From Escherichia coli (GTDB taxonomy: Bacteria; Pseudomonadota; Gammaproteobacteria; Enterobacterales; Enterobacteriaceae), in the NCBI RefSeq assembly GCF_044324785.1, contig NZ_CP172127.1: a DNA stretch of 64,000 nt. One strand, 5' to 3'. Below the pieces are notes generated by a model, which was given only the letters and a program-made list of their open reading frames with translations, was not told where the DNA came from and did no database searches. Positions 35,609 to 57,222 of the stretch are shown piece by piece (the first letter of the stretch is position 1; every line of letters starts with the position of its first letter). The translations under genes were made by a program, and so were the position numbers.

Positions 35609-36520
35609 GTGAGTACATTAGAACAAACAATTGGCAATACGCCTCTGGTGAAGTTGCAGCGAATGGGGCCGAATAACGGCAGTGAAGTCTGGTTGAAACT
35701 GGAAGGCAATAACCCGGCAGGTTCGGTAAAAGATCGTGCGGCACTTTCGATGATCGTCGAGGCGGAAAAGCGCGGGGAAATTAAACCGGGTGACGTGCTG
35801 ATCGAAGCCACCAGTGGTAACACCGGCATTGCGCTGGCAATGATTGCCGCGCTTAAAGGCTATCGCATGAAATTGCTGATGCCCGACAACATGAGCCAGG
35901 AACGCCGTGCGGCGATGCGTGCTTATGGTGCGGAACTGATTCTTGTCACCAAAGAGCAGGGCATGGAAGGTGCGCGCGATCTGGCGCTGGAGATGGCGAA
36001 TCGTGGCGAAGGAAAGCTGCTCGATCAGTTCAATAATCCCGATAACCCTTATGCGCATTACACCACCACCGGCCCGGAAATCTGGCAGCAAACCGGCGGG
36101 CGCATCACTCATTTTGTCTCCAGCATGGGGACGACCGGCACTATCACCGGCGTTTCACGCTTTATGCGCGAACAATCCAAACCGGTGACCATTGTTGGCC
36201 TGCAGCCGGAAGAGGGCAGCAGCATTCCCGGCATTCGCCGCTGGCCTGCGGAATATCTGCCGGGGATTTTCAACGCTTCTCTGGTGGATGAGGTGCTGGA
36301 TATTCATCAGCGAGAAGCGGAAAACACCATGCGCGAACTGGCGATGCGGGAAGGAATATTCTGTGGCGTCAGCTCCGGCGGCGCGGTTGCCGGAGCACTG
36401 CGCGTGGCAAAAGCTAACCCCGGCGCGGTGGTTGTGGCGATCATCTGCGATCGCGGCGATCGCTACCTTTCTACCGGGGTGTTTGGGGAAGAGCATTTTA
36501 GTCAGGGGGCGGGGATTTAA
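35609..36520 (+). CDS. cysM: cysteine synthase B (O-acetylserine sulfhydrylase B)
   Basis: 303 aa from GTG at 35609 (STLEQTIGNTPLVKLQRMGP...), PLP-enzyme fold. Confidence 0.9.
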   Translation: MSTLEQTIGNTPLVKLQRMGPNNGSEVWLKLEGNNPAGSVKDRAALSMIVEAEKRGEIKPGDVLIEATSGNTGIALAMIAALKGYRMKLLMPDNMSQERRAAMRAYGAELILVTKEQGMEGARDLALEMANRGEGKLLDQFNNPDNPYAHYTTTGPEIWQQTGGRITHFVSSMGTTGTITGVSRFMREQSKPVTIVGLQPEEGSSIPGIRRWPAEYLPGIFNASLVDEVLDIHQREAENTMRELAMREGIFCGVSSGGAVAGALRVAKANPGAVVVAIICDRGDRYLSTGVFGEEHFSQGAGI

Positions 36521-36522
36521 GA

Positions 36523-36891
36523 TTATTGCGCAGGCACCGTTTTATCCGTCTGCGCAATTAGCGCATGTAAAAAAGGTTGTGCGTTCTCATCGCTTTTACC
36601 GGGCATCTTCACGATATACGGCTTCCCGGTAATCGATGACGACGAGGCTACCTTATCAATAAACTGCTCGGCAGTGTCAATGCGGTTACGGGTATTGCCG
36701 AGCTTCAGACGCAGGTGGGAAACCGCTTCATCGCAGGTATGTTCATCACCGTTGCGCACAAATATCAAATCCTTTTTCTGTGCTAATCCCTCCAGCATGG
36801 CGTTGATACGGGCTTCTTCATGGGCAGTTAACTTCGCGTAAACGGGGAGTGTCATTAGCAGCGTAATGACCAGATAAATGATTTTCTTCAT
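36523..36891 (-). CDS. yfeK: small secreted protein, YfeK-like
   Basis: 122 aa with signal peptide [19 protein letters not shown]; divergent from pdxK; stop is 2 bp from the cysM stop. Confidence 0.55.
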
Positions 36892-36916
36892 TGAATTAAC
36901 TTATCCTTGTTTTGTG

Positions 36917-36982
<66 letters not shown>

Positions 36983-36995
36983 GAGAAAAAATTAA

Positions 36996-37847
36996 ATGAG
37001 TAGTTTGTTGTTGTTTAACGATAAGAGCAGGGCATTGCAGGCGGATATCGTCGCCGTGCAGTCGCAGGTAGTGTACGGCAGCGTAGGCAACAGCATTGCC
37101 GTGCCTGCTATCAAACAGAACGGCCTGAATGTCTTTGCCGTGCCGACGGTATTGCTGAGCAATACACCGCATTATGACACTTTCTACGGTGGTGCGATTC
37201 CGGACGAATGGTTTAGCGGCTATTTGCGTGCGCTTCAGGAGCGTGATGCGTTGCGCCAACTTCGTGCTGTAACCACGGGCTATATGGGAACGGCATCGCA
37301 AATCAAAATCCTTGCCGAGTGGCTGACTGCGCTACGCAAAGACCATCCTGACCTATTGATCATGGTCGATCCGGTGATTGGCGATATTGATAGCGGAATT
37401 TATGTCAAACCTGACCTTCCCGAGGCGTATCGACAATATTTACTGCCGCTGGCGCAGGGAATTACCCCCAATATCTTTGAGCTGGAAATCCTGACCGGTA
37501 AAAATTGCCGCGATCTCGACAGTGCCATTGCTGCTGCAAAAAGTCTGCTTTCAGACACATTAAAATGGGTAGTGATAACCAGCGCCTCCGGTAATGAAGA
37601 AAATCAGGAGATGCAGGTGGTGGTGGTCAGTGCCGACAGCGTGAATGTCATTTCCCATTCACGGGTTAAAACTGACCTGAAAGGGACTGGCGACCTGTTT
37701 TGTGCTCAGCTTATCAGTGGCTTGTTGAAAGGTAAGGAATTAACTGACGCGGTACATAGCGCGGGATTACATGTGCTGGAGGTGATGCGCTATACCCAGC
37801 AGCATGGTAGCGATGAATTGATTTTGCCGCCGCTGGCGGAAGCATAA
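36996..37847 (+). CDS. pdxK: pyridoxal/pyridoxine/pyridoxamine kinase
   Basis: 283 aa [37 protein letters not shown]... Confidence 0.9.
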
Positions 37848-37875
37848 AAAAATGGCGCCGATGGGCGCCATTTTT
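37846..37875. terminator. bidirectional rho-independent terminator between pdxK and crr
   Basis: aaaaaatggcgcc gatg ggcgccattttt: 8-bp GC stem flanked by an A-tract and a T-tract. Confidence 0.65.
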
Positions 37876-37889
37876 CACTGCGGCAAGAA

Positions 37890-38399
37890 TTACTTCTTGA
37901 TGCGGATAACCGGTGTTTCACCCACAGTCACGCTACCGGACAGTTTGATCAGTTCTTTGATTTCGTCCATGTTGGAGATAACAACCGGAGTCAGGGTAGA
38001 CTTGGCTTTCTCTTCCAGCAGCGGCAGATCAAATTCAATGACAGTATCGCCAACTTTCACGCGCTGACCTTCTTCAGCAATACGCTTGAAGCCTTCGCCT
38101 TTCAGTTCAACGGTGTCGATACCGAAGTGGACGAACAGTTCAACGCCGCTATCAGATTCGATAGAGAACGCGTGGTTGGTTTCAAAGATTTTACCAATGG
38201 TGCCGTCTACAGGCGCGACCATTTTGTTTCCAGTTGGTTTGATAGCAATGCCATCACCAACGATTTTTTCCGCAAAAACGACATCCGGCACGTCTTCGAT
38301 ATTGACGATCTCGCCAGAGAGCGGAGCAATGATCTCAATAGTTCCGGTATCCTTCTTGTCGTCGGAAACCAGAGATTTCAGTTTATCGAACAAACCCAT
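37890..38399 (-). CDS. crr: PTS glucose-specific EIIA component
   Basis: 169 aa [39 protein letters not shown]... Confidence 0.95.
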
Positions 38400-38439
38400 G
38401 ATCTTCTCCTAAGCAGTAAATTGGGCCGCATCTCGTGGA

Positions 38440-40167
38440 TTAGCAGATTGTTTTTTCTTCAATGAACTTGTTAACCAGCGTCATTAACTCGTCCGTTGTC
38501 GGTTGAGCAAGAGCCTGCTCTGCTAACACCTTCGCATCTTCGAAGTTCGTGTTACGGATAATCTTCTTAATGCGCGGGATAGAAATGGCGCTCATAGAGA
38601 ATTCGTCCAGACCCATCCCCAGCAACAGAAGTGTAGCACGTTCATCGCCAGCAAGCTCACCACACATGCCAGTCCATTTGCCTTCAGCATGAGAAGCATC
38701 AATAACTTGCTTGATCAAGTTCAGCACGGACGGTGACATTGGCTGGTAAAGGTGTGAAATCATATCATTACCACGGTCAACTGCCAGAGTGTACTGCGTT
38801 AAATCATTGGTGCCGATACTAAAGAAATCAACTTCTTTGGCTAAATGACGTGCAATTGTTGCGGCAGCCGGTGTTTCCACCATTACGCCGATTTCAATTG
38901 ACTCGTCAAACGCTTTACCTTCGTCGCGCAGTTCCTGTTTGTAGATTTCGATCTCTTTGCGCAGTGCACGTACTTCTTCAACAGAGATGATCATCGGGAA
39001 CATAATGCGCAATTTACCGAAAGCCGAGGCACGCAGGATAGCGCGGAGCTGATCGCGCAGGATCTCTTTACGATCCATCGCGATACGGATAGCGCGCCAG
39101 CCAAGGAACGGGTTCTCTTCTTTCGGGAAGTTCATGTATGGCAGCTCTTTGTCGCCGCCGATGTCCATGGTACGAACGATAACCGCCTGCGAGCCACACG
39201 CTTCAGCCACTGCTTTGTAAGCAGCAAACTGTTCTTCTTCAGTGGGCAGCGCGTCGCGGTCCATGAACAGAAACTCAGTACGATACAGACCAACGCCTTC
39301 AGCGCCGTTACGCTCTGCACCTTCAACGTCACGAACCGTACCAATGTTAGCGCACACTTCTACCTGGTGACCGTCCAGCGTAATAGCTGGCAGATCTTTC
39401 AGTTTAGCAAGCTCTGCTTTTTCAGAAGCCACTTGCTCCTGAACAGCGCGCATTTTATCAATAACTTCGTTGGTTGGATTGACGTAAACCTGATTATTTA
39501 CGGCATCCAGAATCAGATAGTCGTCATTTTTCACCTGAGAGGTGACGCTACCGGTACCCACGATAGCAGGCAGTTCCAGAGAACGCGCCATGATAGAGGT
39601 GTGGGAAGTACGGCCACCCGCGTCGGTGATGAAACCCAGCACCTTCTTCAGGTTCAGCTGTGCGGTTTCGGACGGCGTCAGGTCAGCGGCAACCAGAATG
39701 ACTTCATCCTGAATGGCGCTCAGGTCGATAATCTTCAGGCCCAGGATGTTGCGCAGCAGGCGCTTACCGATATCACGTACGTCAGCCGCACGTTCTTTCA
39801 GGTATTCATCATCCAGCTCTTCCAGGGCAGAAGCCTGACCTTCGATAACTTCATGAGCAGCTGCGTCAGCTGTCATGTGCTTATCTTTAATCAGGGCTAT
39901 GATTTCCTGCTCCAGCTCCTCATCTTCGAGCAGCATAATATGCCCTTCAAAGATGGCTTCTTTTTCTTCACCGAACGTTTCACCAGCTTTCGTTTTGATC
40001 GTTTCCAGCTGGGCTGATGCCTTGGCACGACCGCTCAGAAAACGTTCAACTTCCTGATCAACCTGGTCGGCAGAAATTTTTTTCCGGTCAATGACAATTT
40101 CGTCTTCTTTCAGAAGCAGAGCTTTACCGAAAGCGATACCCGGGGATGCTAAAATGCCTGAAATCAT
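38440..40167 (-). CDS. ptsI: PTS enzyme I (phosphoenolpyruvate-protein phosphotransferase)
   Basis: 575 aa [32 protein letters not shown]... Confidence 0.95.
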
Positions 40168-40211
40168 AACCCTACCTTACTTGTGACTGATTTTTAAAAG
40201 AACCCGGGAAA

Positions 40212-40469
40212 TTACTCGAGTTCCGCCATCAGTTTAACCAGATGTTCAACCGCTTTCTGCTCGTCTTCGCCTTCTGCGGAGATAGTCACAACGGTACCTT
40301 GAGTCAGGCCCAGAGTCTGCAGTTTAAACAGGCTTTTCGCGCTGGCGCTTTTGCCGTTGGAAGTCACAGTAATTTCAGAAGTGAAGCCCTTAGCTTCTTT
40401 TACAAACTGGGCAGCAGGGCGGGTGTGCAGACCGTTCGGAGCGGTAATGGTAACTTCTTGCTGGAACAT
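40212..40469 (-). CDS. ptsH: PTS phosphocarrier protein HPr
   Basis: 85 aa [29 protein letters not shown]... (active-site His15 context). Confidence 0.95.
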
Positions 40470-40707
40470 TGTATTTCCCCAACTTATAGGTTTAGTGTTG
40501 TGGAACTAAAGTCTAGCCTGGCGGTTCGACTTTAGCCTGTATTGTTAGCGCCAGTTTTTAACAGACGCGACGCACGAAGAGCGCAATACAGTCCATTGCT
40601 GGCGGGTGTTGACCGCTGACGTTTCGTACGTCATTAAACATTATGCCGCTAAAGGAAGAATTGAACCAAATCATAAAATCGATTCAGCTTTGGCTTTTCC
40701 TGTAACG

Positions 40708-40730
40708 ATTAATTTCGCGCATCAAAATAA
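40708..40730. promoter_or_regulatory. candidate Mlc/NagC-type operator in the ptsH promoter region
   Basis: attaatttcgcgcatcaaaataa: TT-N-cgcgc-N-AA dyad resembling Mlc operators, about 240 bp upstream of ptsH. Confidence 0.35.
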
Positions 40731-40802
40731 TTAGTCTGGTTAAATACCAGTTCCGACAGGCTGAATCAATGCCAGGAGGGGCGAAAGTTTGAAGCAGGCC
40801 AC

Positions 40803-40830
40803 AAAAAAGCACCTGAAAAGGTGCTTTTTT
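40803..40830. terminator. bidirectional rho-independent terminator downstream of cysK
   Basis: aaaaaagcacc tgaaaa ggtgctttttt immediately after the cysK stop. Confidence 0.65.
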
Positions 40831-40852
40831 ACGCATTTTTAACAAGCTGGCA

Positions 40853-41824
40853 TTACTGTTGCAATTCTTTCTCAGTGAAGAGATCGGCAAACAATGCGGT
40901 GCTTAAATAACGCTCACCCGATGACGGTAGAATAACCACAATATTCTTGTTGGTAAAGCTTTCATCTTCTTGTAGTTTCAACGCCGCAGCAACAGCTGCT
41001 CCAGAAGAGATACCAGCAAGAATACCTTCTTCTTCCATCAGACGACGCGCGGTAGAAATGGCTTCTTCATTGGTGATGCCAATGACTTTGTCGACCAGCT
41101 TGAGATCGAGGTTAGCCGGGATAAAACCAGCGCCAATACCCTGAATTTTATGCGGGCCAGGTTTAATCTCTTCACCTGCCAGCGCCTGGGCGATAACTGG
41201 AGAATCGGTTGGCTCAACAGCGACAGAGATAAGATCGGTCTTGCCTTTGGTGCCTTTAATGTAGCGGCTGACACCGGTCAGCGTACCGCCAGTGCCAACA
41301 CCAGCAATAAATACATCAACCTGACCGTCGGTATCTTCCCAGATCTCCGGACCGGTGGTTTTTTCGTGAATTTCAGGGTTTGCCGGATTGCTGAATTGTT
41401 GCAGCAGCAGGTATTTCTCTGGATTGCTGGCGACAATTTCTTCTGCTTTTTGGATTGCGCCTTTCATGCCTTTAGCACCTTCGGTCAGCACCAGGTTTGC
41501 ACCTAACGCTTTCAGCAGCTTGCGGCGTTCAATACTCATGGTTTCTGGCATGGTCAGGGTGAGTTTGTAACCGCGAGCGGCAGCGACATAGGCCAGTGCA
41601 ATCCCGGTATTACCGCTGGTTGGTTCAACCAGTTCAACGCCTGGTTTCAGCACGCCGCGCTTTTCGGCATCCCAAATCATGTTGGCACCGATACGGCACT
41701 TAACGCTGAAGCTGGGGTTACGAGATTCCACCTTCGCCAGAATGCGTCCGTTACCGATGCGATTCAGGCGAACCAGCGGCGTGTGACCGATAGTCAGCGA
41801 GTTATCTTCAAAGATCTTACTCAT
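40853..41824 (-). CDS. cysK: cysteine synthase A (O-acetylserine sulfhydrylase A)
   Basis: 323 aa [44 protein letters not shown]... Confidence 0.95.
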
Positions 41825-42008
41825 GGCCTGTCCTTAACTGTATGAAATTGGGATACAACAGGTAGCATACCCGCTCAGAGAATATGCGGAAGTAAGGATT
41901 TAGCATATCTATATGCAGAAGGGAAATAATGACATGCGAGATGGAATAAGGGGCGGCATAAGCCACCCCTGTTTCACACAAACGGTTTACAAAATAACCG
42001 GTAGATTG

Positions 42009-42770
42009 TTACCGCCACATCGCGTGTTTATCGCGATAGCAATCGACCCACATCGCCGTCGCGCCACAAACGGCAACGGGCATGATGAACAGATTAAGCA
42101 ACGGGATCATCGTAAACAGGCTGGTTAAAGCACCAAACTGCATATTGGTGATTTTGCGTGTGCGCAGGGCGGTGCGCATCTCTTTAAACGGCACTTTGTG
42201 GTTATCGAAGGGGTAATCGCAATACTGGATGGCTAACATCCAGGCGCTAAACAGGAACCACAGTACCGGCGCGACGGTTTGCCCAATACCAGGGATGAAG
42301 TAAAGAATTAGCAATACAATTGCGCGCGGCAGATACCAGGCAAATTTTTGCCATTCGCGTTTCATGATTCGCGGCACATCTTTCATGATACCGAAAATCC
42401 CGGTATCTGGCGGTGTAGCGCCAGTCAATCGTGCTTCCAGTTGTTCAGCCAATAAACCGTTAAACGGAGCGGCAATCCAGTTAGCAATCGTTGAGAAGAA
42501 ATAGCCAAACACTAACAGCACGGAGATGACTGCCAGAGGCCACAACAGATAGCTCAGCCATTGTAACCAGTCCGGAACATAACTCATGAGAGTCGGGATC
42601 CAGACATCGAGTTGCGTAAATAGCCACCAGAATGCGCCCCCCATCAACAAAATATTGACCAGCAGCGGTAAAATAACGAAACGCCGAATCCCAGGTTGCG
42701 AGACGAGCTTCCAGCCTTGCGCAAAATAGTAAAAACCGCTGCGTGGGGCAGATGTGAATGATGAAACCAT
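42009..42770 (-). CDS. cysZ: sulfate transporter CysZ
   Basis: 253-aa polytopic membrane protein; position upstream of cysK. Confidence 0.85.
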
Positions 42771-42999
42771 AATCAGGATGAGCTCCTTTTGACCAATCCC
42801 AGGAAAATTCTGCGTATTTTACCGGGTAATTGCGCAATGGACAGTTAGGATATGTTCGAAAAAACAGCAAAAAGCACGATTTCATCTATCTTTGTGCTGT
42901 GAAAGTTAATAGTGCACTTGCACTTGAGGTAATCGGCAAATACTCTTAGTGAGTAAATGTTTGCCGTGGTGGCAAGGTGTTAGAACAACAGAGAATATA

Positions 43000-43944
43000 A
43001 TGATGCAGGATTTGCGTCTGATATTAATCATTGTTGGCGCGATCGCCATAATCGCTTTACTGGTACATGGTTTCTGGACCAGCCGTAAAGAACGATCTTC
43101 TATGTTCCGCGATCGGCCATTAAAACGAATGAAGTCAAAACGTGACGACGATTCTTATGACGAGGATGTCGAAGATGATGAGGGCGTTGGTGAGGTTCGT
43201 GTTCACCGCGTGAATCATGCCCCGGCTAACGCCCAGGAGCATGAGGCTGCTCGTCCGTCGCCGCAACACCAGTACCAACCGCCTTATGCGTCTGCGCAGC
43301 CGCGTCAACCGCAGCCGGTGCAGCAACCCGTGCAGCAGCCTGCCTATCAGCCGCAGCCTGAACAGCCGTTGCAGCAGCCAGTTTCGCCACAGGTCGCGTC
43401 AGCGCCGCAGCCAGTGCATTCAGCGCCGCAACCGGCACAACAGGCTTTCCAGCCTGCAGAACCCGTAGCGGCACCACAGCCTGAGCCTATAGCGGAACCG
43501 GCTCCAGTTATGGATAAACCGAAGCGCAAAGAAGCGGTGATTATCATGAACGTCGCGGCGCATCACGGTAGCGAGCTAAACGGTGAACTGCTTCTTAACA
43601 GCATTCAACAAGCGGGCTTCATTTTTGGCGATATGAATATTTACCATCGTCATCTTAGCCCGGATGGCAGCGGCCCGGCGTTATTCAGCCTGGCTAATAT
43701 GGTGAAACCGGGAACCTTTGATCCTGAAATGAAGGATTTCACTACTCCGGGTGTCACTATCTTTATGCAGGTACCGTCTTACGGTGACGAGCTGCAGAAC
43801 TTCAAGCTGATGCTGCAATCTGCGCAGCATATTGCCGATGAAGTGGGCGGTGTAGTTCTTGACGATCAGCGCCGTATGATGACTCCGCAGAAATTGCGCG
43901 AGTACCAGGACATCATCCGCGAAGTCAAAGACGCCAACGCCTGA
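43000..43944 (+). CDS. zipA: cell division protein ZipA (FtsZ membrane anchor)
   Basis: 314 aa from ATG at 43000: N-terminal TM ([26 protein letters not shown]), P/Q-rich linker, C-terminal FtsZ-binding domain. Confidence 0.85.
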
Positions 43945-44005
43945 TACACTTAAGGCATATTAACTCCTCTTCGAACCCCCGCTTGTCGGGGGTTTTTAGC
44001 ATTGA

Positions 44006-46030
<2,025 letters not shown>

Positions 46031-46031
46031 G

Positions 46032-46250
46032 ATGGAAAAAGAGCAGCTGATTGAAATAGCCAATACGATAATGCCGTTTGGCAAATACAAAGGGCGTCGC
46101 TTAATCGACCTGCCGGAGGAGTATCTTCTGTGGTTTGCCCGCAAAGATGAGTTCCCGGCAGGGAAGCTCGGTGAGCTAATGCAAATCACGCTGCTGATTA
46201 AAACTGAGGGGCTGACGCAACTGGTCCAGCCCCTGAAGCGTCCTCTTTAA
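46032..46250 (+). CDS. ypeB: small DUF3820-family protein YpeB
   Basis: 72-aa ORF starting 2 nt after the ligA stop. Confidence 0.7.
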   Translation: MEKEQLIEIANTIMPFGKYKGRRLIDLPEEYLLWFARKDEFPAGKLGELMQITLLIKTEGLTQLVQPLKRPL

Positions 46251-47245
46251 GCTTTATTGGCGCGGCTTTCCTGCTGCGCCTGTAACTGTTCGGTCTGGTG
46301 TTTGTATCGACGCGCCAGCACCGCACAGACCATCAATTGGATCTGATGGAAAATCATCAGAGGCAGCACCATCATACCGATCACCGATGTGGGGAAAAGA
46401 ATGTTTGCCATCGGGATGCCATTTGCCAGACTCTTTTTCGAACCACAAAAGACGATAGTAATTTCATCTGCCTTATTGAAGCCCAGTCGGCGTGCCATAA
46501 AGACGTTAACTACGATCACGATAGCCAGAAGAACGCAGCTGACCACCACGATAAACAGCAATGATCCCCAGCCAACTTTATGCCAGATACCATTAACAAC
46601 GGCTTCGCTAAACGCTGTATAAACCACCAACAGAATGGACGTCTGGTCAGTTTTCGCAATCCATTTTTTATTGCGCGACACCCAGTCACCAATCCACGGC
46701 CGGGAAAGATGCCCCAACACAAACGGCAGCAGCAGTTGCAGCATAATTTTACCGACCTGCTCAAGGCTGCCTCCCGCACCGTGAACATTCATCACCAGAC
46801 CAACCAGCAATGGTGAAAGGAAAATCCCCAGCAGGCTGGATGCTGACGCAGAACAAACCGCTGCCGCGACGTTACCGCCCGCCATTGAAGTAAAGGCGAT
46901 TGCAGACTGCACGGTAGCGGGGAGAATGCACAAGTAGAGAAAACCGGAGTAGAGCATCGGGTCGACATTTACCGGTTTCCACCAGGCAAACAGCACGCCC
47001 AGAATCGGAAACAATACGAAGGTGCTGCACATTACCCACAAATGCAGTCGCCAGTGCCCACCGCCAGCAATAATCGCCTCACGCGACAACTTCGCGCCGT
47101 GCATAAAAAACAGCAGGGCAATCGCTGCGGTGGTCAGATTTTCAAAGAAGGGGACGAAATCGCCTCTGGCCGGAAAGAAAGAGGCCAGCAACACCACCGT
47201 GATCAGGGTTAAGGTGAAAGGATCGAGGATACGAAAAAGTTTCAT
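46247..47245 (-). CDS. yfeH: bile acid:sodium symporter-family membrane transporter
   Basis: 332-aa polytopic membrane protein; divergent from the LysR-type regulator. Confidence 0.8.
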   Translation of the reverse strand: MKLFRILDPFTLTLITVVLLASFFPARGDFVPFFENLTTAAIALLFFMHGAKLSREAIIAGGGHWRLHLWVMCSTFVLFPILGVLFAWWKPVNVDPMLYSGFLYLCILPATVQSAIAFTSMAGGNVAAAVCSASASSLLGIFLSPLLVGLVMNVHGAGGSLEQVGKIMLQLLLPFVLGHLSRPWIGDWVSRNKKWIAKTDQTSILLVVYTAFSEAVVNGIWHKVGWGSLLFIVVVSCVLLAIVIVVNVFMARRLGFNKADEITIVFCGSKKSLANGIPMANILFPTSVIGMMVLPLMIFHQIQLMVCAVLARRYKHQTEQLQAQQESRANKA

Positions 47246-47334
47246 AAAGACTCCAGATGATCGATGGTTCTATTGTGCTTCTTCCAGTTTGAGAAATAAA
47301 ATTGATTTATTGCATCCATTCATGAAGAAAACAG

Positions 47335-48261
47335 ATGAATTATTCTTTAAAACAATTAAAGGTTTTCGTCACAGTAGCGCAGGAGAAAAGTTTTAGTCGT
47401 GCAGGAGAGCGTATCGGCCTGAGCCAGTCGGCAGTGAGTCACAGTGTGAAGGAGCTGGAAAATCATACTGGTGTTCGCCTGCTGGACAGAACCACGCGTG
47501 AAGTGGTGCTTACAGATGCAGGGCAGCAGTTGGCTTTGCGTCTTGAGCGACTGCTGGATGAACTGAACAGCACGTTGCGCGATACCGGGCGTATGGGGCA
47601 ACAACTGAGCGGAAAAGTTCGGGTCGCTGCCAGCCAGACCATTTCCGCGCATCTTATTCCGCAATGCATTGCTGAAAGCCATCGCCGCTATCCAGATATT
47701 CAGTTTGTCCTGCACGATCGTCCGCAGCAGTGGGTGATGGAAAGTATTCGCCAGGGAGATGTCGATTTTGGCATCGTCATCGATCCAGGCCCAGTGAGCG
47801 ATCTGCAATGTGAAGCGATTCTTTCCGAGCCTTTCTTTCTGCTTTGCCATCGCGATAGCGCTTTGGCCGTGGAAGATTATGTACCCTGGCAGGCATTACA
47901 GGGAGCGAAATTGGTGTTGCAGGATTACGCGTCAGGCAGCCGACCGCTGATTGACGCAGCTCTGGCGCGCAACGGTATTCAGGCGAATATTGTGCAGGAG
48001 ATTGGTCATCCGGCGACGCTGTTCCCGATGGTAGCCGCAGGCATCGGCATTAGTATTCTTCCCGCACTGGCGCTGCCGTTACCTGAAGGTAGCCCGCTGG
48101 TGGTAAAGCGCATTACGCCGGTGGTGGAACGCCAGTTGATGCTGGTGCGCAGGAAGAACCGTTCACTTTCCACCGCCGCTGAAGCGTTATGGGACGTGGT
48201 ACGAGGCCAGGGCCGTGCGCTAATGGCTGGGCGGGAAGGGGATCCGCTGTATCAGATATAG
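47335..48261 (+). CDS. yfeR: LysR-family transcriptional regulator
   Basis: 308 aa, N-terminal HTH ([42 protein letters not shown]). Confidence 0.8.
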
Positions 48262-48593
48262 ATATCGATCTGAGTCGTTTTTTCAACAGGATTTGGAAGG
48301 GATGCATTCAAAGACAAACTCTGCTCTTTCTCCTGCGCCTTTTCTGCCTGCTGTCTTTGCAACTGCGCCAGTTGTGTTTCCAGTAGGGTGATTTGCTGCT
48401 GAATCAATTCGGCCTGTTTTTGCTTGTCTTCAGCACTGCCGCTAGTGTCTGCAATCTCTTTAATTTGTTGAGTGAGTTTGATGATTTGCTGACTTATCCG
48501 CGCAATTTGTGAAGCAACATCGCTACCTTCTGATGCCCTGTTACTACTCTGTGTTTGTATGGAAGGAATTGAAGTTGAAGAGATAGTGGCCAT
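48252..48593 (-). CDS. small Q-rich coiled-coil protein, FlxA-like
   Basis: 113-aa ORF with GAGGA 6 nt upstream of ATG; S/T-rich N-terminus then heptad-like Q/L/I repeats ([18 protein letters not shown]...[23 protein letters not shown]); overlaps the yfeR 3' end by 10 bp. Confidence 0.5.
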
Positions 48594-48681
48594 TGTTCAG
48601 TCCTCGTCACTGTACGAGGTAATATCGGCAGAAGAACAAGGAACTTGAGAAGAAAAATCAATCTTACAAACCGCATATAGC

Positions 48682-48708
48682 AAAAAAGCGCCTTTAGGGC
48701 GCTTTTTT
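48682..48708 (-). terminator. rho-independent terminator of the tRNA operon (palindromic)
   Basis: aaaaaagcgcc ttta gggcgctttttt directly downstream of tRNA-Lys. Confidence 0.65.
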
Positions 48709-48712
48709 ACAT

Positions 48713-48788
48713 TGGTGGGTCGTGCAGGATTCGAACCTGCGACCAATTGATTAAAAGTCAACTGCTCTACCAACTGAGCTAACGACCC
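48713..48788 (-). tRNA. lysV: tRNA-Lys (anticodon UUU)
   Basis: Reverse complement reads GGGTCGTTAGCTCAGTTGGTAGAGCAGTTGACTTTTAATCAATTGGTCGCAGGTTCGAATCCTGCACGACCCACCA. Confidence 0.95.
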
Positions 48789-48792
48789 GAAG

Positions 48793-48868
48793 TGGTGGGT
48801 GATGACGGGATCGAACCGCCGACCCCCTCCTTGTAAGGGAGGTGCTCTCCCAGCTGAGCTAATCACCC
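48793..48868 (-). tRNA. valY: tRNA-Val (anticodon UAC)
   Basis: Reverse complement reads GGGTGATTAGCTCAGCTGGGAGAGCACCTCCCTTACAAGGAGGGGGTCGGCGGTTCGATCCCGTCATCACCCACCA. Confidence 0.95.
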
Positions 48869-48914
48869 ACTTCGGTACTTCACATTTTTACAAGAAATTT
48901 AGCTGGCGAGAAAG

Positions 48915-48990
48915 TGGTGGGTGATGACGGGATCGAACCGCCGACCCCCTCCTTGTAAGGGAGGTGCTCTCCCAGCTGAGCTAATCACCC
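48915..48990 (-). tRNA. valX: tRNA-Val (anticodon UAC)
   Basis: Identical 76-nt sequence to the preceding tRNA-Val. Confidence 0.95.
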
Positions 48991-49034
48991 ACTTCTCAAT
49001 TTCTTGCTACACGGCGGAGACTACATAAAGTAGT

Positions 49035-49110
49035 TGGTGGGTGATGACGGGATCGAACCGCCGACCCCCTCCTTGTAAGGGAGGTGCTCTCCCAGCTGAG
49101 CTAATCACCC
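49035..49110 (-). tRNA. valU: tRNA-Val (anticodon UAC)
   Basis: Identical 76-nt sequence; first gene of the four-tRNA operon. Confidence 0.95.
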
Positions 49111-49127
49111 CCGCTGTGTGGAGTCGC

Positions 49128-49155
49128 ATTATAGGGAGAGTTCAAAATGAGTCAA
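49128..49155 (-). promoter_or_regulatory. sigma70 promoter of the valU-valX-valY-lysV tRNA operon
   Basis: On the minus strand: TTGACT, 16-nt spacer, TATAAT, then GC-rich discriminator gcgactcc. Confidence 0.55.
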
Positions 49156-49368
49156 CGCATTTTCTAAAGAAATTGTTCGTTCGTCGTAAATTTAAGCAAG
49201 ATGATCGCAAAACAGACCGTGTTGCGCAATTTGTCAACGAAAACAATAATGCGTAAGGTTGCAACCCGAACTACATTGAGGAATCAGGCGGGAGTGATAG
49301 AATATCGCCCACTCAATTTTTCCAGGATTTGCCGGTTGTCGGCATCTTTCTAAACGTAAGGCCATTTC

Positions 49369-50784
49369 ATGAAAATCAAAACTCGCTTCGCGCCAAGCCC
49401 AACAGGCTATCTGCACGTTGGCGGCGCGCGTACTGCTCTTTACTCCTGGCTTTTTGCACGTAACCACGGCGGTGAGTTCGTGCTGCGTATTGAAGACACC
49501 GATCTTGAGCGTTCCACGCCGGAAGCTATCGAAGCCATTATGGATGGCATGAACTGGCTGAGCCTGGAGTGGGATGAAGGTCCGTACTACCAGACCAAAC
49601 GTTTTGATCGCTACAACGCGGTGATCGATCAGATGCTGGAAGAGGGCACAGCTTATAAATGCTATTGTTCTAAAGAGCGCCTGGAAGCGCTGCGCGAAGA
49701 GCAAATGGCGAAAGGTGAGAAGCCGCGTTATGACGGTCGCTGCCGCCACAGCCATGAGCATCATGCTGATGATGAACCGTGCGTTGTACGTTTTGCTAAC
49801 CCGCAGGAAGGTTCTGTTGTTTTTGACGATCAGATCCGTGGCCCGATTGAGTTCAGCAACCAGGAGCTGGATGATCTGATCATTCGCCGTACCGATGGTT
49901 CCCCAACCTATAACTTCTGTGTGGTTGTTGATGACTGGGATATGGAAATCACCCATGTTATCCGTGGCGAAGACCATATCAACAACACGCCGCGCCAGAT
50001 CAACATTCTTAAAGCCCTGAAAGCGCCGGTACCGGTTTACGCGCACGTTTCTATGATCAACGGCGATGACGGTAAAAAACTGTCCAAACGTCACGGGGCG
50101 GTCAGCGTAATGCAGTATCGTGATGACGGTTATCTGCCAGAAGCACTGCTGAACTATCTGGTGCGTCTGGGCTGGTCCCACGGCGATCAGGAAATCTTCA
50201 CTCGTGAAGAGATGATCAAATACTTCACCCTGAATGCCGTCAGCAAATCTGCCAGTGCGTTCAACACCGACAAGCTGCTGTGGCTGAACCATCACTACAT
50301 TAACGCGCTGCCGCCGGAGTATGTTGCTACTCACTTACAGTGGCACATTGAGCAGGAAAATATCGATACCCGTAACGGCCCGCAGCTGGCTGATCTGGTG
50401 AAACTGCTGGGCGAACGCTGCAAGACGCTGAAAGAGATGGCACAGAGCTGCCGTTATTTCTACGAAGATTTTGCTGAGTTCGATGCCGACGCCGCGAAAA
50501 AACATCTGCGTCCAGTAGCGCGTCAGCCGCTGGAAGTAGTTCGTGACAAACTGGCCGCGATTACTGACTGGACAGCTGAAAACGTTCATCACGCTATTCA
50601 GGCGACGGCGGATGAGCTGGAAGTGGGTATGGGTAAAGTTGGTATGCCGCTGCGTGTCGCCGTTACCGGTGCGGGGCAGTCTCCGGCGCTGGATGTTACC
50701 GTTCACGCAATCGGTAAGACCCGCAGTATCGAGCGTATCAACAAAGCGCTGGCTTTTATTGCTGAACGCGAAAATCAGCAGTAA
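49369..50784 (+). CDS. gltX: glutamyl-tRNA synthetase
   Basis: 471 aa [49 protein letters not shown] (HIGH-type motif) and KLSKR motif. Confidence 0.95.
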
Positions 50785-50802
50785 TTAGCGCATAAAAGAT
50801 AA

Positions 50803-50832
50803 ACGGCAGGAGAGATACCCCTGCCGTTTTTT
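50803..50832. terminator. bidirectional rho-independent terminator between gltX and yfeD
   Basis: acggcagg agagatacc cctgccgt followed by ttttt. Confidence 0.6.
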
Positions 50833-50834
50833 AT

Positions 50835-51227
50835 TTATTCTGATTCATCTATGTCGAGACGAGCAAGGAAATTACGAATTCCTTCGCGTGACAAAAATTG
50901 CGCAACTTTTTCCTGCTCACTGTGAGTCATGTTGTCTATTGCGCTGATGATTTGCCGATAAGCAGGAGTGCGAATCCCCGGTGCGTATTCGGCAAGGGGT
51001 TCTTCGGCTTCCAGAAGCATCGGCGTGTTATGGAAGGCTGGCGTGTTCTGAATAAACTCGCAAACTTGCGTATCGACCAGAATAAGTCTGGCACGACCGC
51101 CTTTCACGCCAGGAAATTTTTCCGTTTTCCAGCCTTTTTCTCTGATCCAACGGTTAACAGTTTGTTTAGCCACACCGAGGCATTCAGCCAGTTCTTCGGT
51201 GGTCATTTTATTGCGTAATCTTTTCAT
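50835..51227 (-). CDS. yfeD: DUF1323-family putative DNA-binding protein
   Basis: 130 aa MKRLRNKMTTEELAECLGVAKQTVNRWIREKGWKTEKFPGVKGGRARLILVD...; paralog of the adjacent ORF. Confidence 0.75.
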   Translation of the reverse strand: MKRLRNKMTTEELAECLGVAKQTVNRWIREKGWKTEKFPGVKGGRARLILVDTQVCEFIQNTPAFHNTPMLLEAEEPLAEYAPGIRTPAYRQIISAIDNMTHSEQEKVAQFLSREGIRNFLARLDIDESE

Positions 51228-51228
51228 A

Positions 51229-51573
51229 TTATTTGCTATCGCGAATCCCTAAGCGTTGTAATAATCCGATAATCCCTTCCCGCAGAAGCAAGGATGTAAA
51301 CTGTTTTTGTTCAACTGGCGTCATCTCTTTCGCCAGTGTCACCAGCAACACTTCAAGCGGCGCATCACCAGACAGGGCAGGCGCTTCTCCCTGACCTTCT
51401 GGACGTTCAGCATTGCGAATATATTCACGAACCTGTTCATTGACGTGAACCAGTCGGGCTTTGCCACCCTGGACGCCTGGTTTTGGTGACGTTGTCCAGC
51501 CTTCCTTGCGTACCCATTTATTAATGGTCTGGCGGCTATAGCCGGTCAGTCTGGCAAGTTCATCTGGCGTCAT
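51229..51573 (-). CDS. yfeC: DUF1323-family putative DNA-binding protein
   Basis: 114 aa from the internal ATG preceded by AAGGAGAGG (MTPDELARLTGYSRQTINKWVRKEGWTTSPKPGVQGGKARLVHVN...); track ORF extends 5 codons upstream. Confidence 0.75.
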   Translation of the reverse strand: MTPDELARLTGYSRQTINKWVRKEGWTTSPKPGVQGGKARLVHVNEQVREYIRNAERPEGQGEAPALSGDAPLEVLLVTLAKEMTPVEQKQFTSLLLREGIIGLLQRLGIRDSK

Positions 51574-51747
51574 CCTCTCCTTGAACATAACAATTCCCTG
51601 AATGTATGTGGGTCTATTAGTAGTTCATTTTATAACACCACTTTACAGGAAACCGTGACATGAATAACTACTGAATGCGAGCGGTTTTCCAAAATTGTTC
51701 ATTTGCCTGATTTTTCAGCGATTGAAACTACACGTTGCAATTTGCCG

Positions 51748-51776
51748 TTGACACATTCGGGCGGAATTCATATGAT
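51748..51776 (+). promoter_or_regulatory. sigma70 promoter of the alaX-alaW tRNA operon
   Basis: TTGACA, 17-nt spacer, TATGAT, then GC-rich discriminator gccgcccg, about 30 nt upstream of the first tRNA-Ala. Confidence 0.55.
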
Positions 51777-51808
51777 GCCGCCCGTCAACTCGACAAGCTT
51801 TACGTGAC

Positions 51809-51884
<76 letters not shown>

Positions 51885-51923
51885 AATTTTGCACCCAGCA
51901 AATTTGGTACGTAAACGCATCGT

Positions 51924-51999
<76 letters not shown>

Positions 52000-52008
52000 A
52001 ATTTCCAA

Positions 52009-52035
52009 CCCTCGCTGCAAAGCGGGGGTTTTTTG
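52009..52035 (+). terminator. rho-independent terminator after the tRNA-Ala pair
   Basis: ccctcgct gcaa agcggggg followed by ttttttg. Confidence 0.6.
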
Positions 52036-52206
52036 TCTCTGCTTTTTGCCGCTTTTGTAATACAGTCTACGTCCGGGTTAGCGCCGCCTGGTGAAAGCAT
52101 CATTGGATGAAAAATCGGCAACAGGCTGGCCCCTGTTTGCTTCGCGATGCGAATAAACTTATTATTTGTGTGCCTGAAAACCCCGATCAGTGAGAGTAGT
52201 GTACTC

Positions 52207-54396
52207 ATGTTTGTGGAGCATAACCTGATAAAAAATATCAAGATATTCACACTAGCGTTTACGCTCACCGTGGTACTTATTCAGCTATCCCGTTTTATTT
52301 CGCCACTTGCCATTATCCATTCCAGTTATATCTTTCTGGCGTGGATGCCACTGTGCGTAATGCTGTCAATCTTGTTTATCTTTGGCTGGCGCGGTGTCGT
52401 TCCCGTTTTATGCGGGATGTTTTGCACCAATCTGTGGAACTTTCATCTCTCTTTTTTACAGACTGCGGTCATGCTCGGCAGCCAGACGTTTGTCGTGTTG
52501 TGTGCCTGCGCAATATTACGCTGGCAGCTGGGGACGCGTTGGCGTTATGGTTTGACCAGCCGATATGTCTGGCAACGTCTGTTCTGGCTTGGTTTGGTGA
52601 CGCCGATCGGCATCAAATGCAGCATGTATCTTGTGGGGAGCTTTTTTGATTTCCCGCTAAAGATATCCACCTTTTTCGGCGATGCGGATGCCATTTTCAC
52701 AGTCGTTGATTTACTAAGCCTTTTCACCGCTGTGCTGATTTACAACATGCTTTTCTACTATCTCACTCGCATGATTGTAAGTCCCCACTTTGCGCAGATA
52801 TTGTGGCGCAGGGATATCGCTCCGTCGTTGGGCAAAGAGAAACGCGCATTTACCTTAAGCTGGCTGGCAGCGTTAAGCGTGCTGCTACTTCTGCTGTGCA
52901 CACCGTATGAAAATGACTTTATTGCCGGTTACCTGGTGCCCGTTTTCTTCATTATCTTTACCCTCGGGGTCGGTAAGCTCCGCTATCCGTTTTTAAATCT
53001 CACCTGGGCTGTTTCAACGCTTTGCCTTCTGAATTACAACCAGAACTTTTTGCAAGGGGTGGAAACCGAATATTCGCTGGCATTTATTCTCGCAGTGCTG
53101 ATTTCCTTTAGCGTTTGCCTGCTCTATATGGTGCGCATTTATCATCGCAGTGAATGGCTTAATCGCCGCTGGCATTTGCAGGCGCTGACCGATCCGTTAA
53201 CGCTCCTACCCAACTTTCGTGCGTTAGAACAAGCGCCGGAGCAAGAGGCGGGCAAGAGTTTTTGCTGCCTGCGCATTGATAATCTTGAGTTTATGAGCCG
53301 TCATTACGGCTTAATGATGCGCGTTCACTGTATCCGATCAATTTACCGTACGCTGCTGCCGTTGATGCAGGAAAACGAAAAGTTGTATCAATTGCCGGGT
53401 AGTGAACTGCTGTTAGTGCTGAGTGGACCGGAAACGGAAGGGCGACTCCAGCATATGGTTAACATCCTGAATAGTCGGCAAATTCACTGGAACAATACCG
53501 GGCTGGATATGGGCTATGGTGCTGCCTGGGGGCGTTTTGATGGAAATCAGGAAACCCTGCAACCCTTGTTGGGGCAGTTAAGCTGGCTGGCGGAGCAATC
53601 CTGCGCACATCACCATGTGCTGGCGCTGGATAGCAGAGAGGAGATGGTTTCCGGGCAGACCACTAAACAGGTGCTATTGCTGAATACCATTCGTACGGCG
53701 TTAGATCAGGGTGATTTGCTGCTCTACGCCCAGCCAATTCGCAACAAAGAGGGTGAAGGTTATGATGAGATCCTCGCGCGACTGAAATATGACGGCGGCA
53801 TTATGACCCCGGATAAGTTTCTGCCCCTTATTGCTCAGTTTAACCTTAGCGCGCGTTTTGATTTGCAAGTGCTGGAATCCCTGTTGAAGTGGCTGGCAAC
53901 ACATCCTTGCGACAAAAAAGGCCCGCGCTTTTCAGTCAATTTAATGCCGCTCACGCTGCTGCAAAAGAATATTGCCGGGCGGATTATTCGTCTGTTTAAG
54001 CGTTATCACATCTCCCCGCAGGCGGTCATTCTTGAGATCACCGAGGAGCAGGCGTTTTCTAACGCAGAAAGCAGCATGTACAACATCGAGCAACTGCATA
54101 AGTTTGGTTTCCGGATTGCGATTGATGACTTTGGCACCGGCTATGCCAACTACGAACGGTTAAAGCGTTTGCAGGCTGATATCATCAAAATTGATGGCGT
54201 CTTTGTGAAAGATATCGTCACGAATACGCTGGATGCGATGATTGTGAGATCAATTACCGATCTGGCGAAAGCAAAGTCATTGAGTGTAGTCGCGGAGTTT
54301 GTCGAGACGCAACAGCAGCAGGCGCTATTACATAAGCTCGGAGTGCAATATCTGCAAGGGTATTTGATTGGTCGCCCGCAGCCATTAGCTGATTAA
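52207..54396 (+). CDS. pdeA: membrane-anchored c-di-GMP phosphodiesterase (MASE1, degenerate GGDEF, EAL)
   Basis: 729 aa from ATG at 52207 (MFVEHNLIKNIKIFTLAFTL...); N-terminal polytopic region and C-terminal EAL domain. Confidence 0.8.
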   Translation: MFVEHNLIKNIKIFTLAFTLTVVLIQLSRFISPLAIIHSSYIFLAWMPLCVMLSILFIFGWRGVVPVLCGMFCTNLWNFHLSFLQTAVMLGSQTFVVLCACAILRWQLGTRWRYGLTSRYVWQRLFWLGLVTPIGIKCSMYLVGSFFDFPLKISTFFGDADAIFTVVDLLSLFTAVLIYNMLFYYLTRMIVSPHFAQILWRRDIAPSLGKEKRAFTLSWLAALSVLLLLLCTPYENDFIAGYLVPVFFIIFTLGVGKLRYPFLNLTWAVSTLCLLNYNQNFLQGVETEYSLAFILAVLISFSVCLLYMVRIYHRSEWLNRRWHLQALTDPLTLLPNFRALEQAPEQEAGKSFCCLRIDNLEFMSRHYGLMMRVHCIRSIYRTLLPLMQENEKLYQLPGSELLLVLSGPETEGRLQHMVNILNSRQIHWNNTGLDMGYGAAWGRFDGNQETLQPLLGQLSWLAEQSCAHHHVLALDSREEMVSGQTTKQVLLLNTIRTALDQGDLLLYAQPIRNKEGEGYDEILARLKYDGGIMTPDKFLPLIAQFNLSARFDLQVLESLLKWLATHPCDKKGPRFSVNLMPLTLLQKNIAGRIIRLFKRYHISPQAVILEITEEQAFSNAESSMYNIEQLHKFGFRIAIDDFGTGYANYERLKRLQADIIKIDGVFVKDIVTNTLDAMIVRSITDLAKAKSLSVVAEFVETQQQQALLHKLGVQYLQGYLIGRPQPLAD

Positions 54397-54403
54397 CAGG
54401 CGT

Positions 54404-54436
54404 AAAAAAGCCGGGGAATGATCCCCGGCTTTTTTA
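54404..54436. terminator. bidirectional rho-independent terminator between pdeA and nupC
   Basis: aaaaaagccgggga atgatc cccggctttttt. Confidence 0.7.
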
Positions 54437-54445
54437 TGTATGGTT

Positions 54446-55648
54446 TTACAGCACCAGTGCTGCGATTGACGCAGACAGCACACTCACCAGGGTAGAGCCG
54501 TAAACCAGCTTCAGACCGAAGCGAGAAACCACGTTACCTTGCTCTTCATTCAGGCCTTTAACTGCACCTGCGATAATCCCGATTGAAGAGAAGTTAGCGA
54601 AGGAAACCAGGAACACAGAGATGATGCCTTCAGCACGCGGAGAGAGCGTGGAAGCAATTTTCTGCAGATCCATCATCGCAACGAACTCGTTGGAAACCAG
54701 TTTGGTCGCCATGATACTGCCCACTTGCAGTGCTTCACTGGAAGGAACACCCATCACCCATGCAATCGGATAGAAGATGTAGCCCAGGATGCCCTGGAAG
54801 GAGATGCTGTAGCCAAACCAGCCAGTCACGGTGGCAAACAGTGCGTTCAGCGCGGCGATCAGGGCGATAAAGCCGATCAGCATCGCGGCAACGATAATGG
54901 CAACTTTGAAACCTGCCAGAATGTATTCACCCAGCATTTCGAAGAAGCTCTGACCTTCGTGCAGGTTGGACATCTGGATGTTTTCTTCACTGGCATCAAC
55001 ACGGTAAGGGTTGATCAGCGACAGCACGATAAAGGTGCTGAACATGTTCAGTACCAGTGCCGCAACGACGTATTTCGGTTCCAGCATGGTCATGTATGCA
55101 CCAACGATGGACATCGACACGGTGGACATCGCCGTGGCAGCCATGGTGTACATGCGATTGCGGGAGATTTTGCCGAGGATATCTTTATAGGCAATAAAGT
55201 TTTCAGACTGACCCAGAATCAGGGAGCTGACGGCGTTAAAGGATTCCAGTTTGCCCATGCCGTTGACTTTGGAGAGCAGGAAACCAATTGCGCGGATAAT
55301 CACCGGCAACACGCGAATGTGCTGGAGAATACCGATCAGTGCAGAGATAAAGACGATTGGGCACAGCACTTTAAGGAAGAAGAATGCCAGGCCTTGATCA
55401 TTCATGCTACCAAAGACGAAGTTAGTCCCTTCGTTGGCAAATCCGAGCAGTTTTTCAAACATTTCGGAGAAGCCTTTCACGAAGCCTAAACCAACGTCGG
55501 AGTTCAGGAAGAACCACGCCAGTAACACTTCGATAACAAGCAGTTGAATAACATAACGGATACGAATTTTTTTGCGGTCGCTGCTTACCAGCAGTGCGAG
55601 AATCGCAACAACGGCAAGTGCCAGTACAAAATGAAGGACGCGGTCCAT
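54446..55648 (-). CDS. nupC: nucleoside:H+ symporter (CNT family)
   Basis: 400 aa from ATG at 55648 ([22 protein letters not shown]...). Confidence 0.9.
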
Positions 55649-55915
55649 ATTTGCTCCAAATATGAGGCAGGTTAAATTTCCGTGCACATTCTATGTAACA
55701 TGGTTAAGGAAAACGAGATCTGACACACACTATAATGACGTCCTGTGACAAGCTTCAAAAATAGTGAGCTGTCATACATTTCTGCTATGTTGTGTATGGA
55801 AGCTGAAAGTTATGTAAATGTGCTAACATTAAACATAACCATAACATTCAAGTCATCAATCTTTTCGTAGTCATAATCCTGGTCTATCAGAGAAATCACC
55901 ACAACCCATTTAAAT

Positions 55916-55934
55916 GAATTTGATAATCATTCTC
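55916..55934. promoter_or_regulatory. Fur box upstream of mntH
   Basis: gaatttgataatcattctc matches the Fur consensus GATAATGATAATCATTATC at about 15 of 19 positions. Confidence 0.5.
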
Positions 55935-55949
55935 GTTTGGCATAGCATG

Positions 55950-55971
55950 AAACATAGCAAAGGCTATGTTT
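55950..55971. promoter_or_regulatory. MntR operator upstream of mntH
   Basis: Palindrome aaacatagc aaag gctatgttt ending 13 nt before the mntH ATG. Confidence 0.5.
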
Positions 55972-55974
55972 TAG

Positions 55975-57222
<1,248 letters not shown>

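Follow-up and report, generated by a model that had tools for sequence, protein, structure and literature searches.

A FlxA-family gene with a predicted sigma-28 promoter in the slot between yfeR and lysV of Escherichia coli

The founding member of the FlxA protein family (PF14282) is FlxA of Escherichia coli K-12 (b1566), encoded in the Qin prophage. Its gene is among the most strongly FliA-dependent transcripts of this strain: deletion of fliA, the gene of sigma-28, lowers its RNA-seq value from 280 to 2 (PMC4183435), and in another study the same kind of deletion lowers expression 28-fold and induction of FliA raises it 8-fold (PMC1935009). Chromatin immunoprecipitation (ChIP) followed by sequencing places the FliA site at TAAAGATT-N11-GCCGATAG, also given as TAAAGATT...GCCGATAGT; the gene is described as having no evident part in flagellar synthesis or motility (PMC4183435), and a 2024 source still counts flxA as uncharacterised (PMC11551758). 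For nearly 30 years the gene has stood without a function, treated as a prophage oddity. The subject of this report is another member of the family, a small minus-strand gene located between yfeR and the tRNA gene lysV in a stretch of 64,000 nucleotides (nt) of E. coli DNA (contig NZ_CP172127.1), referred to below as the window. The gene is quite probably an intact, selected FlxA-family gene that has its own sigma-28 promoter, belongs to the class-3 flagellar regulon and is the ancestral occupant of its slot, not phage cargo.

The FlxA-like gene and its product

The open reading frame (ORF) starts with ATG and encodes 113 amino acids (aa). A preliminary description, made from the sequence alone, had recorded it together with a GAGGA Shine-Dalgarno sequence, a 10-bp overlap with yfeR and an N-terminus rich in Ser and Thr, all of which are present, and had called the product FlxA-like. 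A hidden Markov model search bears this name out: PF14282 is matched with E=5e-15 and 55.9 bits, residues 15-93 aligning with model positions 4-83 of 101, and is the only significant Pfam match of the protein. By BLASTP the protein is 45% identical to K-12 FlxA across 74 aa of the helical core (E=3e-13). The product of the identical E. coli locus is already named 'FlxA-like family protein' in RefSeq (for example WP_000201400.1); the term FlxA-like was not found in the literature searched, and the protein was rightly described as uncharacterised.

Searched exhaustively, a set of 1.84 billion representative proteins yielded 93 clusters with E≤1e-3, almost all of them 100-125 aa in length, where word-indexed protein searches gave 8 and 43 matches. 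All 32 aligned relatives match PF14282, the best with 8.8e-23; besides FlxA, the Pfam scan of these proteins gave only scattered coiled-coil families, and matches to Flagellin_C and CT398_CC, in one member each, were judged compositional. An NCBIfam scan found no dedicated model and gave coiled-coil matches below threshold only. In the family alignment the proteins begin, almost without exception, with M-[TSA]-[TS]-I; a stretch rich in Ser, Thr and Gly, two heptad helices, a variable linker and a conserved C-terminus, G-x-N-x-P-x5-(I/V)D(I/V)Y(I/V), follow. The terminal (I/V)D(I/V)Y(I/V) occurs in almost all of 67 sequences, with Y112 nearly invariant, and the window protein ends in IDIYI. It shows the full family architecture, namely a length of about 105-120 aa, an N-terminus of low complexity, a pair of heptad helices and the C-terminal motif, and contains 20 Gln, 15 Ser and 14 Ile, with Ser or Thr at 11 of the first 25 positions.

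AlphaFold2, run with the family alignment, predicts a helical hairpin composed of helices 23-49 and 54-96, with a predicted local distance difference test score (pLDDT) of 70-90, flanked by a disordered Ser/Thr-rich segment at residues 1-21 (pLDDT below 50) and a disordered tail at 97-113. A sequence profile search of the PDB and a Foldseek search against it yielded generic or designed coiled coils and helical hairpins, with nothing below E=0.2; a CdsO/FliJ-like structural match was rejected as not significant (E=0.26).

Between species, the ratio of non-synonymous to synonymous substitution rates (dN/dS), estimated by the Nei-Gojobori method for the eight pairs with usable dS, is 0.05-0.13 with synonymous sites near saturation, which indicates that the FlxA-like protein is under purifying selection. 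Length, start and stop are kept in at least 60 genomes, and the reading frame is maintained across strains and genera. Judged by its sequence, the 113-aa ORF is an intact protein-coding member of the FlxA family. Frameshifted forms also occur in public data: 159-aa variants in public assemblies shift frame at the A6 run at 48283-48278 (-), read antisense through yfeR and lose the IDIYI tail, and a separate 95-aa variant comes from an NCBI genome. These forms could be real alleles or sequencing errors.

A predicted sigma-28 promoter and its surroundings

The preliminary description had seen no obvious promoter and had called expression of the gene uncertain. This view gives way to a strong match to sigma-28, the sigma factor also called FliA. 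The scan used the consensus TAAAGTTT-N11-GCCGATAA, allowed up to three mismatches and covered both strands. The match, TCAAGTTC-N11-GCCGATAT at 48648-48622 (-), agrees with the consensus at 13 of 16 positions and is the sole one within this limit in the whole window (128 kb with both strands), where 0.54 would be expected by chance. It sits in the gap of ~90 nt between the lysV terminator and the ATG. No match was found 5' of the ORF in a scan for sigma-70 promoters, an absence that misled the earlier reader.

Conservation of the motif was followed in a scan of one genome per species, with an alignment of 10 closer sequences, which comprised 63 loci, all from Enterobacteriaceae and from roughly 25 genera. 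With start codons adjusted, a motif of at least 11/16 that ends 25-35 nt before the ATG is present in 61 of the 63. A score of at least 12/16 is reached in 60 loci, against 1.4% of random 120-nt windows drawn from the same loci, and 60 have the exact heptamer GCCGATA placed 20-45 nt 5' of the ATG, the background being 1.5e-4 per nt. When 64 distinct upstream regions were aligned on the -10 element, only cTcAAg and TGCCGATA proved strongly conserved, TGCCGATA being the best-conserved block; besides these, an A/G-rich block at the position of the Shine-Dalgarno sequence is weakly conserved. Pantoea has TAAAGTCG-N11-GCCGATAA 29 nt before the ATG. The same elements recur in promoters mapped by ChIP: that of flgKL (TCAAGTCC...GCCGATAAT) shares TCAAGT with the -35 element of the window, and that of motAB has the same GCCGATATT as the window element (PMC4183435).

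By analogy with K-12 flxA, the window gene would depend on FliA, and its assignment as a monocistronic class-3 flagellar-regulon gene appears well supported by the motif and its conservation. The gene would be transcribed alone, from the predicted promoter just past the lysV terminator, and would be switched on late in flagellar assembly, when export of FlgM frees FliA. The terminator, which is unchanged in E. coli TUM14771, BL21 and O157 and almost unchanged in Pseudocitrobacter, is predicted to set the tRNA transcript apart from the FlxA-like promoter.

Two further observations concern the upstream region. A distant FlxA-family gene of Xylophilus sp. (Betaproteobacteria), at an unrelated locus (L073, 5890-6378), has TTCAGTCC-N11-GCCGATAA 34 nt upstream; in this single case the association of the family with sigma-28 may extend beyond Enterobacterales. 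A hairpin in the 5' untranslated region, CCTCGT-N6-ACGAGG, that would mask the Shine-Dalgarno sequence was considered and rejected: the predicted sigma-28 start falls within or after its 5' arm, and its conservation is limited to Escherichia and Pseudocitrobacter.

The features of the locus are collected in Table 1. The 3' ends of yfeR and the FlxA-like gene share the 10 bp from 48252 to 48261, and the stop codon of yfeR falls within the FlxA-like codons for the conserved ...IYI. Within the tRNA cluster, ARAGORN and Rfam place tRNA-Lys(UUU) at 48713-48788 (-), and the three tRNA-Val(UAC) reach 49110 (-); gltX starts at 49369.

Table 1. Positions of the FlxA-like gene, its predicted promoter and neighbouring features in the window
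Feature	Position	Strand	Basis
FlxA-like coding sequence (CDS)	48252..48593	-	Pfam, family alignment, dN/dS, AlphaFold2 model, C-terminal motif counts
Shine-Dalgarno GAGGA, 7 nt 5' of ATG	48601..48605	-	read directly
Predicted sigma-28 (FliA) -10 element GCCGATAT, ending 28 nt before ATG	48622..48629	-	consensus scan, orthologue conservation
11-nt spacer between -35 and -10	48630-48640	-	sequence
Predicted sigma-28 (FliA) -35 element TCAAGTTC	48641..48648	-	consensus scan, orthologue conservation
409-bp cassette (promoter and nearly whole CDS) in place of 4,559 bp of K-12	48263..48671	.	junction alignment
yfeR, encoding a LysR-type regulator; runs towards the FlxA-like gene	47335..48261	+	ORF list, annotation
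Intrinsic terminator of the valU-valX-valY-lysV operon, AAAAAAGCGCCCTAAAGGCGCTTTTTT	48682..48708	-	by eye; not listed by a simple terminator scanner
lysV, valY, valX, valU tRNA genes (Lys-UUU and three Val-UAC)	48713..49110	-	ARAGORN, Rfam
Sigma-70-like promoter of the tRNA operon, TTGACT-16-TATAAT	49155-49128	-	promoter scan, 11/12 matches

One slot with two occupants

The gene order gltX-valUXY-lysV-flx-yfeR-yfeH-ypeB, in the same orientation, recurs in almost every one of the 63 loci, and again in Pantoea. Among the 56 loci that could be scored, the tail-to-tail overlap with yfeR is present in 55, with a length of 10 nt in 39, 4 nt in 15 and 22 nt in one; Pantoea has it too. Four genomes retain the FlxA-like gene without yfeR (L017, L055, L059 and L060). 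FlxA-like proteins had been described beforehand as usually phage-associated, a view that the survey does not sustain: nearly all orthologues occupy one core-chromosomal slot, and a tblastn search with the window protein gave no match in 50,697 phage records. K-12 FlxA has one match in these records, a Qin-like phage, and the prophage flxA copy of K-12 is the exception. Since nearly all orthologues share one slot and phages scarcely carry the gene, the FlxA-like gene is taken as the ancestral Enterobacterales occupant. As read from gene order, it is ancestral in the slot across Enterobacteriaceae and Erwiniaceae, and at the scale of Enterobacterales the xap island is a replacement. The polarity implied by the preliminary description, in which the window strain was the odd one beside K-12, is thereby reversed at this scale.

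K-12 MG1655 harbours yfeN-xapA-xapB-DUF1427-xapR-RtT between yfeR and lysV, in agreement with the order xapR-xapB-xapA-yfeN given for this place in the preliminary description. Homology with K-12 stops at window position 48262, one base beyond the yfeR stop, and restarts at 48672, at the RtT/lysV-terminator repeat. The suspicion that the locus varies between strains is likewise confirmed: in a set of 5,426 complete E. coli genomes, the FlxA-like cassette was located in 1,316, at 1,324 places that are all chromosomal (median one per genome), and the K-12-type xap island, with a coverage of ≥80%, in 4,066. These counts are consistent with alternative occupants of one slot; the Qin-type prophage flxA is present in 1,200 of the same genomes. 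In a spread sample of 60 records, all 59 carrier records have the cassette annotated as an intact FlxA-like gene. Carriers include BL21, O157:H7, O145:H28 and ST69-like strains, so the cassette state spans more than one lineage. Its alleles form two groups, with ~99% (175 genomes) and ~97% (1,139 genomes) identity to the window.

In the Salmonella enterica locus examined, the slot contains yfeR-yfeN-xapA-xapB-DUF1427-xapR and no FlxA-like remnant. The xap genes of Salmonella show 73-79% nucleotide identity to those of K-12, like the flanking genes, and the island must therefore be old in the Escherichia-Salmonella group. Presence of the xap island in K-12, in Salmonella and in about 75% of E. 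coli leaves both main flagellar model organisms without the native FlxA-like copy, and K-12 with only a diverged prophage paralogue, Qin flxA. By analogy with that paralogue, the FlxA family would be dispensable for motility.

The module formed by yfeR and the FlxA-like gene has a history of its own. Nucleotide identity to Pseudocitrobacter is 87-95% for the FlxA-like gene and for the yfeR of both E. coli haplotypes (window 47285-48670 against L003 and L004), compared with 73-76% between the same module and Salmonella, Kluyvera, Citrobacter and Enterobacter. The identity to Pseudocitrobacter drops to background inside yfeH, just past the yfeR-yfeH intergenic region. This pattern indicates that a module of ~1.4 kb was probably exchanged between the Escherichia and Pseudocitrobacter lineages.

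Additional variation surrounds the slot within E. coli. Genomes with scrambled remnants of both cassettes are rare, with only two seen: in the HH97 type (L069, 3644-4860) ~1.2 kb of scrambled FlxA-like (84%), xapB (84%) and RtT fragments are interspersed with long poly-A runs, a state explained either by decay of a mosaic or by faulty assembly. The alleles of the xap island (K-12, L002 7164-11722) appear to form a group of at least 99% and a group of ~93% identity, the latter deeper than typical E. coli core divergence, which suggests that the second class of alleles is old or was imported. The region of the lysV terminator (window 48667-48730) aligns with K-12 at two sites, corresponding to the RtT repeat downstream of lysV; Rfam reports no RtT small RNA in the window. 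An extra RtT unit of ~158 bp occurs in K-12 and in some FlxA-cassette strains (H2, H3), and repeat copy number therefore varies independently of the cassette. The closest cassette carrier, TUM14771, has an IS609 tnpA pseudogene and a TnpB gene between gltX and yfeD (L001, 6803-8444), an insertion from which the window is free at ~50790-50830. Over the 20 kb of window 36000-56000, the closest of the complete E. coli genomes are 98.8-98.9% identical, and the window lineage seems poorly represented among them; it may belong to Shigella or to a divergent clade. The best matches include an ST69 strain, presumably of phylogroup D.

Weighing the readings and comparison with known systems

A number of observations weigh against the reading of the FlxA-like gene as a selected, ancestral member of the flagellar regulon. 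The predicted promoter is a motif match with three mismatches; GCCGATA is missing within 400 nt in the orthologues L035 and L064; and non-motile BL21 (BL21-AI, CDS at 1490-1831 of the locus) has ACCGATAT in place of GCCGATAT at -10. Close alleles differ by non-synonymous changes: the window and TUM14771 alleles by 0 synonymous and 2 non-synonymous substitutions, the BL21 and O157 alleles by 0 and 4. The dN/dS between the window and the ~97% allele group is about 0.5-0.6, the O157:H7 allele has IGIYI for the conserved C-terminal IDIYI, and constraint may be relaxed within E. coli. The gene is dispensable, being absent from 76% of E. coli and from the Salmonella locus examined. The ordinary orthologue divergence of the Salmonella xap island appears to leave the polarity of the slot within Escherichia two-sided. 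Searches of NCBIfam, Pfam, PDB profiles and Foldseek gave no fold or sequence link between the protein and known flagellar proteins. Finally, a culture exoproteome in which K-12 FlxA is up also lists cytoplasmic CheY and metabolic enzymes, and lysis together with class-3 up-regulation would explain it (PMC6391000).

The last two points count equally against a tentative refinement, the likeliest role put forward for the protein but held with low confidence, in which this small acidic helical hairpin would be a late substrate of flagellar type III export, secreted like FlgM, or a small export-gate factor. In the same exoproteome FlxA is accompanied by the complete set of known late substrates, FlgK, FliD, FliC, FlgL and FlgM (PMC6391000), and at 42 C K-12 FlxA protein and mRNA shift in opposite directions as secretion of FlgM breaks down and the export apparatus comes apart (PMC6551532). 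The family-wide conservation of the sigma-28 promoter would fit such a role, and so would the N-terminus, which is predicted to be disordered and is nearly uncharged (over the first 25 positions, medians of 11 for Ser/Thr and 1 for charged residues). Its start, MATISS, resembles MASISS of FliD and may be compared with MSIAVTTT of FlgD and MSIDRTS of FlgM, whereas the cytoplasmic FliS, FliT and FlgN begin with structured helices; this likeness to export substrates is compositional only. No hydrophobic stretch of the Sec-signal kind is visible by eye. If the export role is true, FlxA proteins have been overlooked because the xap island took the place of the native gene in both K-12 and Salmonella.

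It is improbable that the sigma-28 transcript acts in part as an antisense RNA, running into yfeR and lowering pro-biofilm YfeR in motile cells. The 3' ends overlap in 55 of the 56 scorable loci and in Pantoea, leaving no room for a terminator, and a terminator scan found no terminator-like site on the minus strand from 48252 to 47129, although Rho-dependent termination could operate there. YfeR is reported to promote anaerobic biofilm through FNR, nitric oxide (NO) and c-di-GMP (PMC11227560), which would fit a switch between motile and sessile states. Purifying selection on the amino-acid sequence, however, marks the protein as the selected product, the gene persists without yfeR in four genomes, and K-12 and Salmonella regulate yfeR without a FlxA-like gene. 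A combined proposal, that the FlxA family is an unrecognised Enterobacterales-wide late substrate or gate factor of flagellar type III export whose overlapping transcript couples motility to YfeR repression, is speculative and rather unlikely.

Phage-derived or otherwise mobile cargo at a tRNA-flanked hot spot is a very improbable origin for the gene. The founding member, K-12 flxA, does lie in the Qin prophage and matches PHROG 11044, the locus borders on tRNA genes and exists in two forms in E. coli, and the yfeR-flx module has apparently crossed between genera. Against this, the PHROG match of the window protein is weak (2e-9) and its search of the phage records was empty; neither integrase, nor attachment-site repeats, nor phage genes were found near the locus in the window, its neighbours being yfeR, the tRNAs and gltX. 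Slot, orientation and 3' overlap are the same in nearly all 63 genomes and in Pantoea, and every E. coli copy of the cassette is chromosomal and sits at this locus. A chance ORF or a decaying pseudogene without product is scarcely credible: the non-synonymous excess among close alleles, the broken O157 motif, the frameshifted variants and the absence from most E. coli could be read in this way, but the low dN/dS between species, the conserved length, start and stop, the intact state in all sampled carriers and the conserved Shine-Dalgarno sequence and promoter speak against it.

The gene was already annotated in databases, and its family was known, if functionally uncharacterised. Three elements, of which no description was found in the literature searched, appear to be new: a sigma-28 promoter conserved across the family; the ancestral native position of the family, overlapping yfeR; and the displacement of the FlxA-like gene by the xap island in both main model organisms. 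No paper found to mention flxA or yfeR appeared to deal with this locus. On the reading of an ancestral class-3 gene, FlxA would come to be seen as an accessory but conserved component of the flagellar regulon, native in a core slot from Pantoea to Escherichia. E. coli O157:H7, ST69-like strains, Enterobacter and Kluyvera would be better organisms than K-12 or Salmonella in which to study its function. The survey also documents an old two-cassette polymorphism in E. coli, FlxA-like against xanthosine utilisation. The practical stakes are modest.

Among known systems, K-12 FlxA is closest to the window protein. Both belong to the same family, with 110 and 113 aa respectively, and share a Ser/Thr-rich N-terminus, two helices and a C-terminal IDIY(I/V); in both genes the sigma-28 promoter, predicted in the window, lies 23-28 nt before the ATG. 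The two proteins differ in that their identity is confined to the helical core, and the genes in that flxA occupies a prophage site next to relBE-hokD, whereas the window gene resides in a core slot overlapping yfeR. For K-12 flxA the dependence on FliA is a measured one; for the window gene it is predicted from the promoter motif. The late class-3 substrates FlgM, FlgK, FlgL, FliD and FliC have sigma-28 promoters of the same form and, like the window protein, a small and largely helical build with a disordered N-terminus; they differ in having no sequence or fold homology to it in the searches run. The yfeN-xapA-xapB-xapR island of K-12 and Salmonella fills exactly the same interval, from the yfeR stop to the lysV terminator/RtT repeat, with a very different content: a nucleoside channel, a xanthosine phosphorylase, a transporter and a regulator, in 4.6 kb as against 0.4 kb for the FlxA-like cassette.

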